Positions 5,756 to 6,555 of a stretch of 8,444 nt of DNA are shown here, one piece after another; within the stretch, counting starts at the first letter, position 1, and each line of letters opens with the position of its first letter. Under the pieces are notes generated by a model. That model had not been told where the DNA came from. It searched no databases and worked only from the letters and a program-made list of their open reading frames with translations. Source of the DNA: a virus. Lineage: Duplodnaviria > Heunggongvirae > Uroviricota > Caudoviricetes. Position numbers and translations under genes: made by a program. The stretch lies in the IMG/VR virus record IMGVR_UViG_2700989521_000015; one strand, written 5' to 3'.

Positions 5756-6196
5756 TTACTTAATAACAGTAACCACAGCCACAAGCACGGCCATCGCAGA
5801 CAGGACAATACCTGTGAGTAACCAAGTCTGATTTGCAAATGATTTCTGAAGTTCAGTACGATGCTCAGCCATCTCAACTTTCAGAGACTGGCGTAAATCA
5901 GCCATCTCAGACTTCAGGGATTGGCGCGATTCTGCCATCTCAAGCCTCAACCCTTCGCGAATCTCCAGTACATCAGATTTGGTAGCAAAGGATTCGCTTC
6001 TTGTGGTGAGAGTAATCAGGTTGTTTTTGATTTCAGTCACATCACTTTCCAGGCAACTGACCCGCCGTTCAAGGTCGTCATTCATGCCATCACCTCCATC
6101 ATTACCACTTCCTGTTACTTGGTTGTTGGATACATTATAGGCATTCTCTTTCTTTTTTCTGAACCGCGAAATATGTGCAACATTCTCTGCCATCAC
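5756..6196 (-). CDS. Hypothetical tail-anchored coiled-coil protein (146 aa from GTG at 6196, or 145 aa from the ATG at 6191-6193): three tandem 11-residue repeats, then a C-terminal transmembrane helix
   Basis: ORF whose ATG start overlaps the upstream stop as TGATG. Repeats EMAESRQSLKS / EMADLRQSLKV / EMAEHRTELQK, then hydrophobic WLLTGIVLSAMAVLVAVVTVI. No family recognised; architecture resembles XhlA/DUF883-like tail-anchored proteins, inference only. Confidence 0.6.
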   Translation of the reverse strand: MMAENVAHISRFRKKKENAYNVSNNQVTGSGNDGGDGMNDDLERRVSCLESDVTEIKNNLITLTTRSESFATKSDVLEIREGLRLEMAESRQSLKSEMADLRQSLKVEMAEHRTELQKSFANQTWLLTGIVLSAMAVLVAVVTVIK

Positions 6197-6555
6197 TTCT
6201 CATCACCCTGCTTGCCTACCCAGTTCATAAAGGCCCGGGCCGAGTAACGATGAACAAACCCACATCTGTTACAGGTCAGTCGGAATTCATAGTTATGGAT
6301 ATTTTCCCGATCATGTCCCTCATATCCCGGATACCCAGTAAATGGACCGATGTAATCAAGCATAACAAAAGTGCCTAAATCACACTCCTCAGCAGTTTTC
6401 GGCTCAGGCCCCACCTCAACAATATTCGTCAAATACATGTACATATCCGTATCGCCACACGACAAACATTTTTCATTCGTAGACGACTCATTGAGAAAAC
6501 GCGCAAAATTATCGAGCGTTGCCATTCTTTTAAGTTCATCTAAATGAAACTTCAC
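6193..6555 (-). CDS. Hypothetical 120-aa protein with two CxxC motifs (possible zinc ribbon); GTG start 2 nt after the int stop
   Basis: AGGAGGT Shine-Dalgarno lies 8 nt upstream of the GTG at 6555, inside the int 3' end. Motifs CLSC (res 30-33) and CNRC (res 96-99). No family recognised. Confidence 0.6.
   Translation of the reverse strand: MKFHLDELKRMATLDNFARFLNESSTNEKCLSCGDTDMYMYLTNIVEVGPEPKTAEECDLGTFVMLDYIGPFTGYPGYEGHDRENIHNYEFRLTCNRCGFVHRYSARAFMNWVGKQGDEK

Follow-up and report, generated by a model that had tools for sequence, protein, structure and literature searches.

RexA and RexB of phage lambda are an abortive-infection pair encoded in the cI-rexA-rexB PRM operon. P2 old, tin and fun(Z), together with the P2/P4 defence hotspots, are accessory genes placed in variable slots between conserved core genes. 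A stretch of 8,444 nucleotides (nt) of viral DNA (Caudoviricetes; IMG/VR record IMGVR_UViG_2700989521_000015), hereafter the window, carries a two-gene module that resembles both arrangements. The genes, here called g1 and g2, lie on the minus strand between the integrase gene (int) of a P2-like prophage and the junction of the prophage with the host chromosome. Judged by sequence comparison, g1 and g2 are a real, conserved and mobile accessory cassette (moron) of temperate enterobacterial phages. The module is undescribed and is part of no catalogued system; the slot, and the idea of cargo in prophage hotspots, are already known.

Like RexA and RexB, g1 and g2 form a two-gene unit behind a prophage repressor, in which one product is cytoplasmic and the other a membrane protein, and relatives of g2 from phage HK544 (gp40/gp41) and from VT1-Sakai (H0053) are found in exactly the lambda rexAB slot. 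The resemblance is positional and architectural only; there is no sequence or fold similarity between the pairs, and neither g1, g2 nor HK544 gp40/gp41 matched the Pfam RexA or RexB families. RexB is polytopic; the membrane part of g2 is one C-terminal helix, borne on a long coiled coil. The cargo of the P2/P4 hotspots differs from prophage to prophage, as does that of the int-att slot occupied by g1 and g2. However, this slot is neither the gpA-portal slot nor the tail cluster, and the module has no homology to old, tin or fun(Z). The module is not among the systems tested or listed for the P2/P4 defence hotspots by Rousset et al. 2022 (PMC9122126). The int-att slot has been reported as a minor hotspot, with 3% of the recognisable defence systems of P2-like phages (bioRxiv 10.64898/2026.02.27.708500), and a third hotspot has been reported between a tail protein and CI (bioRxiv 10.1101/2024.10.15.618418); the module is described in neither preprint.

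Scans of both proteins and their alleles against Pfam, NCBIfam and PADLOC returned only sub-threshold coiled-coil and zinc-knuckle noise. PADLOC-DB v2.0.0 (2023) gave no defence match, the best E values (0.03 and 0.0075) falling on coiled-coil parts of Cas12a and LmuB; the alleles matched only coiled-coil regions of ZorA and LmuB. No toxin-antitoxin family was matched in Pfam, PADLOC or NCBIfam. A preliminary description of this DNA, made from the letters alone, had recognized no characterized family in either protein. That assessment stands for defence, toxin and housekeeping families, but not entirely for g2, which is a remote relative of the DUF1640/CCDC90 type.

The gene boundaries and coupling signals given in the preliminary description (AGGAGGT within int, a GTG just past the int stop and a TGATG overlap) can all be read in the sequence. 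The g1 start (GTG, 6553-6555) lies 2 nt past the int stop, and the g2 ATG overlaps the g1 TGA as TGATG. Counted from this ATG g2 has 145 amino acids (aa); the list of open reading frames (ORFs) gives 146 aa, counted from a GTG one codon upstream. The features of the module are as follows.

6564-6570, minus strand: Shine-Dalgarno sequence of g1, AGGAGGT, within the last int codons, 8 nt 5' of the GTG
6193-6555, minus strand: g1, 120 aa, acidic cytoplasmic protein, predicted zinc ribbon, PHROG 4293 (function unknown)
6457-6468, minus strand: first predicted zinc knuckle of g1, CLSC, residues 30-33
6286-6447, minus strand: hypervariable middle of g1 between the knuckles, residues 37-90, varying in length and sequence across the family
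6262-6273, minus strand: second predicted zinc knuckle of g1, CNRC, residues 95-98
5756-6193, minus strand: long form of g2, 145 aa, tail-anchored coiled-coil membrane protein, PHROG 9415
6086-6193, minus strand: residues 1-36 of g2, the N-terminal extension, composed of a variable peptide and then the Gly/Asp-rich linker GNDGGDG
6083-6097, minus strand: probable internal start of g2, GGAGGT at 6092-6097, a spacing of 6 nt, and the ATG of Met37 at 6083-6085
5972-5989, minus strand: beta-layer motif of g2, FATKSD, residues 69-74, with K72 and D74 invariant in the alignment of closer relatives (alignment A2)
5828-5959, minus strand: four 11-residue (hendecad) repeats of the g2 stalk
5762-5818, minus strand: C-terminal transmembrane anchor of g2, residues 126-144, 19-residue Kyte-Doolittle mean 2.65

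The window is 99.1% identical to Escherichia coli SE11, whose prophage is a complete P2-like element and in which RefSeq annotates g1 (WP_000668483.1) and g2 (WP_000829983.1) each as "hypothetical protein".

Variation in the slot was surveyed in 5,426 complete E. coli genomes, 304 of which have a P2-like prophage at the ihfA/btuC site. The 3' end of int, which forms the conserved upstream flank of the slot, and an arm of about 130 base pairs (bp) beside the att core are common to the 304 prophages (~97% identity), and the interior differs. The g1-g2 module is present at this site in 86 genomes, at 98.3-99.8% identity, and three divergent alleles of it together account for about 58 more. A 166-aa gene followed by a 145-aa "DUF1640" gene occurs in 23 genomes, with some 16 others sharing just the DUF1640 gene, and a pair of 127 aa and 99 aa occurs in 17-19. 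The first genes of these two-gene variants match g1 (BLASTP 1e-9 and 7e-5) and each other (1e-15), and the divergent g1 alleles match PHROG 4293 (1.4e-22 and 4.5e-16). For the 99-aa second gene the sole ties to g2 are its match to the DUF1640 allele (6e-4) and the PHROG matches that they have in common. Between int and the DUF1640 gene of locus L002, RefSeq and its annotation pipeline, PGAP, left unannotated an intact g1-type ORF (about 2175-2570, minus strand; some 131 aa), so this allele appears as single-gene cargo. Of the 304 prophages roughly half have this two-gene system, which exists in four forms diverged to 20-37% identity. The commonest alternative cargo, found in 158 genomes including E2348/69 and O104:H4, is a single unrelated 131-aa gene (L004, 1638-2033) that matches PHROG 14142 (function unknown) and no Pfam or PADLOC family. 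In E. coli M1/5 (L006, 3141-4655), an ISEc52 insertion and a deletion have removed the repressor gene C, int and the g1-type gene, and the DUF1640 gene is truncated.

The family extends beyond E. coli. An exhaustive hidden Markov model search of 1.84 billion representative proteins identified 35 relatives of g1 at E <=0.001. The named ones are all from Enterobacterales (Providencia, Citrobacter, Morganella, Serratia, Klebsiella, Regiella, Sodalis, Salmonella and E. coli) and are all annotated as hypothetical. In each of the loci inspected, which span seven other genera and a Klebsiella siphophage, the gene directly after the g1-type one is of the g2 type, with stop and start usually overlapping or abutting, and the pair is also present in Salmonella-like contigs. 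These results bear out the preliminary view of a two-gene cargo in the int-att slot. The positions of the pair elsewhere are as follows.

Providencia: pair adjoining ogr
Citrobacter: pair where the tail/ogr side of the prophage meets host raiA, with terminators on both sides
Sodalis: pair after int, g2 frameshifted
Regiella: degraded pair
Klebsiella P2-like element: pair after int
Klebsiella siphophage ST101-KPC2phi6.1 (48 kb): pair between a Bro/KilAC-like gene and tail genes
Prophage at another att site, yhbY/ftsJ/ftsH: carries the pair

The variety of these positions indicates that the cassette is mobile and has no functional tie to int. The link to int drawn in the preliminary description is thus particular to some loci, as the module is found elsewhere on the ogr side of att and in a siphophage tail-gene region. 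The module was not detected by megablast among isolated phage genomes, and a tblastn search for g2 gave no match there, probably owing to the low-complexity filter. The other end of the SE11 prophage has a Hok/Gef-family toxin gene between ogr and attR (L017, 14305-14445), so both att-proximal ends of this prophage hold small accessory genes. The classical gpA-portal hotspot of the same prophage (L001, 27706-30213) contains three hypothetical genes of 263, 114 and 458 aa.

Both genes are under purifying selection, with ratios of non-synonymous to synonymous substitution rates (dN/dS) of 0.11-0.34 against relatives at dS ~1; for g1 the ratio is 0.11-0.17 against relatives at dS >1. The module has a GC content of 44.3%, compared to 50.1% for the host part of the window and 48.9% for int, in agreement with the AT-rich appearance noted by eye. 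Comparison with one near relative (L021) reveals different histories for the two genes: dS is 0.12 in int and 0.02 in g2 (99% amino acid identity), but 1.34 in g1 (67% identity), and identity falls and returns exactly at the g1 borders. With g1 diverged between near-identical g2 and int, g1 has been swapped as a cassette against a constant g2. Strict co-variation of g1 with the N-terminal tip of g2 was considered and ruled out, since L021 combines a different g1 with the same g2 tip. Against a second relative (L018), for which dS is uniform (0.15-0.20), dN/dS is 0.62 for g1, 0.06 for int and 0.19 for g2. Codons 37-66 of g1 hold 20.7 non-synonymous and 3.3 synonymous differences in this pair, and the proportion of non-synonymous differences (pN, 0.29) exceeds that of synonymous ones (pS, 0.18), whereas pN is below pS in the flanks of this segment.

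The product of g1 matches PHROG 4293 over residues 2-120 of 120 (3.4e-30). It is soluble-looking with two CxxC motifs, CLSC and CNRC, as had been noted at the outset; no hydrophobic segment is present (19-residue Kyte-Doolittle mean at most 0.57), and the protein has a net charge of -6. Among 31 diverse homologues C29, C32, C94, C97, G98 and W111 (alignment numbering) are invariant, and two further hydrophobic positions are nearly so. An AlphaFold model built with a homologue alignment has a mean predicted local distance difference test score (pLDDT) of 86.8 and a predicted template modelling score of 0.77. It has two N-terminal helices, a small sheet bearing the knuckles and a C-terminal helix. 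Around the cysteine knuckles, which are conserved and adjoin each other in the model as expected of a zinc ribbon, pLDDT is 94-97. The protein is taken to be a four-cysteine zinc ribbon and would bind metal. Structure prediction with fold searching, as had been suggested, gave no informative fold match for g1, the overall fold being without a match in the PDB or BFVD; a PDB sequence search returned only weak matches to XPA or S27e zinc fingers. The matches of g1 to ribbons of the TFIIS/Rpb9 type and to small phage zinc-ribbon proteins (restriction-alleviation, Lar-like) are not significant, and g1 differs from these in having a pair of helices at the N-terminus, a further helix at the C-terminus and a long insert that varies. 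An assignment of g1 as an Ogr/Delta activator was rejected (hhalign probability of the g1 family with SE11 Ogr 1.4%, no Pfam Ogr_Delta match), as was a relationship to HK544 gp41.

The product of g2 matches PHROG 9415 over residues 2-141 (1.3e-42). Residues 1-36 are of low confidence or disordered in the AlphaFold model. The reading frame is open from the g1 stop through this extension in 10 of 10 divergent loci, and comparison with a relative at dS ~1 (L019) gives a pS of 0.57 and a pN of 0.21 for the extension, indicative of purifying selection. The open frame and the excess of pS over pN imply that the 36 upstream codons are translated. A second, nested initiation site is also probable from the sequence and would yield a 109-aa short form of g2 without the N-terminal peptide. 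Met37 is invariant in the closer relatives and is kept by all but one of the most divergent alleles, and a perfect GGAGG is found 6-9 nt 5' of the Met37-type ATG in 11 of 13 g2-type genes, including lambdoid HK544 gp40. The GGAGG is encoded by the Gly/Asp-rich run that precedes Met37, and many database entries begin g2 at Met37, giving 109 aa. A 12-nt repeat common to the two g2 start regions was taken as chance. Within the extension, 5' of the internal start, lies a promoter-like TTCAGA-18-TATAAT (10/12; 6134-6163, minus strand) that could drive the short form without g1; similar matches are near chance frequency here, promoter scans of the region having found chance-level sites only, and this site is not relied on.

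Downstream of Met37, g2 is built as a membrane-anchored stalk. DUF1640 membrane proteins share the beta-layer consensus [aliphatic]-A-T-K-[polar]-[D/E] (Hartmann et al., PMC4786415), with which FATKSD of g2 agrees, Phe taking the aliphatic position; the corresponding motifs of g2-type alleles are LSTKAD, LATKSE and FSTKSD. The stalk DNA contains three tandem 33-nt repeats (5865-5963) at 100%, 76% and 61% identity to the reference copy, and close homologues have from three fewer to one more hendecad. That homologues differ by whole repeats suggests that slippage or unequal recombination alters stalk length. A single residue, Lys, follows the anchor, and the hydrophobic C-terminus is kept in all g2-type proteins. 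The AlphaFold monomer is one continuous helix over residues 36-144, which, with the hydrophobic segment at 126-144, fits the earlier view of g2 as a tail-anchored coiled coil. Given that g2 has no signal peptide and that its sole hydrophobic helix is at the extreme C-terminus, the stalk should be in the cytoplasm. A PDB sequence search gave only weak matches to trimeric GCN4/beta-layer constructs (7o92, E 0.006; 5apt, E 0.28).

By its sequence features, g2 is a membrane protein with a beta-layer coiled coil, remotely of the DUF1640/CCDC90 type. Proteins of this family (PF07798; mitochondrial MCUR1 and CCDC90B, and prokaryotic homologues) likewise have a beta-layer motif that opens a coiled-coil stalk, and a C-terminal anchor (PMC4786415). 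The direct match of g2 to PF07798 (10.9 bits, E 0.43) falls below the gathering threshold of 33.5 bits, as does that of a sister allele (L003; 26.6 bits, E 6.2e-6). By BLASTP g2 matches the PGAP-annotated DUF1640 allele of the same locus at 3e-15, and the link of g2 to PF07798 is transitive only, through this allele. What sets g2 apart from the family is its hendecads, the N-terminal peptide with the Gly/Asp linker, the probable internal start and the obligate presence of a zinc-ribbon neighbour. PMC7519068 describes mitochondrial DUF1640 relatives as scaffold factors, a role that is not transferable to g2. In XhlA-type proteins (PF10779), too, a short coiled coil leads into a C-terminal membrane helix, and g2 allele E matches XhlA with E 0.0024 and 18.5 bits (Pfam cutoff 34.7). 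However, g2 is found in the context of a repressor/integrase operon and not of a holin-endolysin cassette.

On the minus strand of the prophage the gene order, pointing toward the host, is C-type repressor, int, g1 and g2. The surrounding prophage features are as follows.

7585-7893, minus strand: C-type helix-turn-helix repressor gene (HTH_3 1.5e-5; PHROG 147 1.4e-31; RefSeq annotation of SE11)
6558-7535, minus strand: P2-type tyrosine integrase, 325 aa (Pfam Int_N 2.9e-28; Phage_integrase 7.4e-18)
5631-5755: phage-derived attL arm, the conserved downstream flank of the slot, ~97% identical across prophages with different cargo
5606-5630: 25-bp att core, AAAGAAAAAAGGCCGCAGAGCGGCC, an exact direct repeat present as attL in the window and as attR beside ihfA in SE11
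7990-8268, plus strand: cox-like gene

The repressor gene is presumed to be the start of the operon that carries g1 and g2. A terminator scan found no terminator-like site between C, int, g1 and g2, and the first terminator past g2 is the hairpin of the att core, 126 nt downstream. A transcript from the repressor promoter would therefore cross both genes and end at the att core. Read-through from the C-int transcript into g1 and g2, on which the preliminary description relied, is plausible on this basis.

The lambdoid relatives provide a parallel. A tblastn search with the Providencia g2 led to HK544 gp40 and VT1-Sakai H0053 (183 aa), in which an N-terminal domain and the sequence DDGGDDM precede a coiled coil and, at the C-terminus, a membrane helix. 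They have PHROG matches 3556, 6324, 6136 and 12602 in common with g2, and in hhalign their linker and first heptads align with the profile of the g2 family (38 columns, probability 88%, E 3e-6). In HK544 the 183-aa gene forms a unit with a 93-aa non-zinc partner, gp41, directly downstream of cI (L022, 2512-3351; VT1-Sakai L023, 2800-3351). The gp41/gp40-type unit precedes the annotated PRM terminator. A gp40-type gene is present in 93 of the 5,426 E. coli genomes, and because its 3' flank matches the DNA after rexB, it occupies the rexAB slot. Of the indirect evidence for lysogen expression of g2-type proteins, the presence of a g2-type gene in the PRM operon is the best. A literature search on ECs2991, ECs2992 and H0053 found no relevant paper, and one on DUF1640 with prophage found incidental mentions only. 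It is conceivable, if doubtful, that g1/g2 and the HK544 gp41/gp40-type pairs belong to one unrecognized class of lysogen-expressed anti-phage systems. Members of such a class would be borne on repressor operons (C-int in P2-like phages, the rexAB slot in lambdoid ones). Their core would be a tail-anchored alpha/beta coiled coil that trimerizes and comes in two isoforms through nested starts, and on the cytoplasmic side of the membrane it would display recognition subunits that can be exchanged.

The favoured explanation, held tentatively with a probability of about 0.4, is that g1 and g2 are a superinfection-exclusion or abortive-infection module that acts in the lysogen, with g1 serving for recognition and g2 as scaffold or effector. 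The pair would be transcribed together with C and int in the lysogen. A trimer of g2 would stand on the cytoplasmic face of the inner membrane, in two forms that arise from the g1-coupled start and from the internal Shine-Dalgarno sequence and ATG. An exchangeable recognition subunit, g1, would dock on this membrane scaffold or effector, possibly via the N-terminal peptide, and the pair would act in phage-phage conflict by a logic analogous to that of RexA/RexB. A defensive role is suggested by the variable slot with conserved flanks, strict pairing and purifying selection, by the exchange of g1 alone and the excess of non-synonymous change in its middle, and by the lack of a terminator before the att core, the g2-type protein in the rexAB slot and the reported defence hotspots. 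Several points weigh against it. The single C-terminal helix of g2 makes no obvious pore, and the interaction of g1 with g2 is deduced only from linkage. The excess of pN over pS in g1 comes from one sequence pair and is statistically not significant. Hotspot location and cassette swapping fit other accessory functions equally. Promoter scans found no convincing promoter for the module copies away from int, and expression of g1 and g2 in the lysogen is a prediction from the DNA sequence. An addiction module, akin to toxin-antitoxin systems, would have g2 as a small membrane toxin and g1 as its coupled upstream antidote, and would stabilize the prophage or kill imbalanced cells. The layout of two small overlapping genes, encoding an acidic soluble protein and then a membrane protein, is in keeping with such a module, as are the degraded Sodalis and Regiella genomes that keep g1 intact with g2 frameshifted or truncated. 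The Hok/Gef gene at the other end of the SE11 prophage indicates that att-proximal slots can host toxin genes. An addiction module is nevertheless unlikely, given the lack of a match to any toxin-antitoxin family and the long coiled-coil stalk of variable repeat number, which is no feature of known small membrane toxins. Moreover, g1 alleles only 67% identical are found beside identical g2, which is awkward for cognate neutralization unless the conserved core is the interface, and a probable g1-independent short form would be dangerous were g2 toxic.

Alternatively, the pair may assist the phage life cycle, for example by anchoring a phage or host factor at the membrane, with an effect on when lysis occurs, on the passage of DNA into or out of the cell, on replication or on the choice between lysis and lysogeny. 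The sub-threshold XhlA match of allele E (E 0.0024), a weak PHROG match of g2 to an Rz-like spanin (E 0.035) and the scaffold role ascribed in PMC7519068 to mitochondrial relatives point in this direction, but every one of the similarity matches is below significance. More than half of the otherwise near-identical prophages at the site do without the module, which is thus dispensable; its genome positions in myoviruses and in a siphovirus are unrelated, and it is oriented with the repressor operon instead of the late or lysis genes, all of which makes a life-cycle role improbable. Lysogenic conversion directed at the host (stress tolerance, envelope or virulence), with the g2 scaffold relocating a g1-bound host factor, would suit the moron-like position, the AT-richer composition and the wide occurrence in pathogenic and commensal E. 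coli. A match of g2 to the YgiM-type tail-anchored family TIGR04211 of NCBIfam (9.4e-5, below cutoff) is one of architectural likeness only. There is no supporting homology for conversion, and the extreme allelic divergence of g1 and the cassette exchange are more typical of conflict systems; this explanation is considered very unlikely. Finally, the annotation of both genes only as hypothetical proteins, and the g1 homologue of one allele missed by PGAP, might suggest non-functional filler or annotation artefacts beside attL. This is effectively refuted by conservation: the PHROG matches are strong, four cysteines are invariant over 31 homologues, the AlphaFold model of g1 is confident, dN/dS is 0.1-0.3 at saturating dS, and gene order is conserved across genera.

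Prophage accessory slots are a productive source of new immune systems, and the cassette is a compact candidate of about 800 bp, present at this one site, in four alleles, in approximately 2.7% of complete E. coli genomes. It offers experimental handles in an exchangeable predicted zinc-ribbon subunit, a constant stalk that varies in 11-residue steps and a probable nested start, and the link to the gene pair in the rexAB slot of lambdoid and Shiga toxin phages suggests a wider family. If the pair proves to be a toxin-antitoxin or physiological module instead, it would provide the first bacterial or phage role for DUF1640-type proteins, whose mitochondrial members MCUR1 and CCDC90B have been studied without a clear ancestral function. 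The module is a well-founded experimental candidate with several unusual features, and nothing about it is yet at odds with current understanding.

The copy of Int in the window differs from its relatives. The true start of Int is at 7535, according to RefSeq SE11 and homologues, and the 375-aa ORF is an upstream extension; the stop, TAA, is at 6558-6560 on the minus strand. At residue 273 (codon 6717-6719, minus strand) the window encodes HALHH, compared to HALRH in relatives and SE11, owing to T in place of C at 6718. His thereby replaces the second catalytic Arg of the H-x-x-R box, and this copy of Int is, from its sequence, probably inactive; the change may have locked the prophage in place.

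Host DNA stops and the left end of the prophage begins at 5630. Identity common to all 5,426 complete E. coli genomes ends at this position, and 304 extend through the next ~130 bp. The integration site is the ihfA terminator, upstream of btuC, and on the minus strand the att core is an intrinsic terminator, GGCCGCTCTGCGGCC followed by a T run. The attL arm holds a direct repeat, ATGTGGTCA / TTGTGGATC, at 5719-5738, and the attR arm of SE11 has similar repeats, ATGTGGACA and TAGTGGAAC. The repeats at 5719-5738 resemble Int arm-type sites and are putatively assigned as such.

The host part of the window is of the E. coli/Shigella chromosome type, with an IS1 end, selO, ydiV, nlpC, btuD, btuE and btuC. 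Rfam had no match within the window. The IS1 end (IS1SD/IS1A-type, 1-323) is 100% identical to copies repeated many times per genome and abuts selO, the 3' end of which is truncated (450 aa, compared to 478 aa in SE11). Relative to SE11, btuC (4593-5547) has lost 11 bp at about 5334 and 1 bp at 4658, deletions that break it into several ORFs, and is probably a pseudogene, barring assembly errors; an additional 1-bp deletion is found at 4539. The IS1 end and the btuC lesions suggest a Shigella-like host rich in insertion sequences. At the opposite end of the window, the final 60 bases (8385-8444) do not align to the SE11 prophage, to which the 8 kb before them are 99% identical, and may represent a mosaic boundary or an insertion in the early region.

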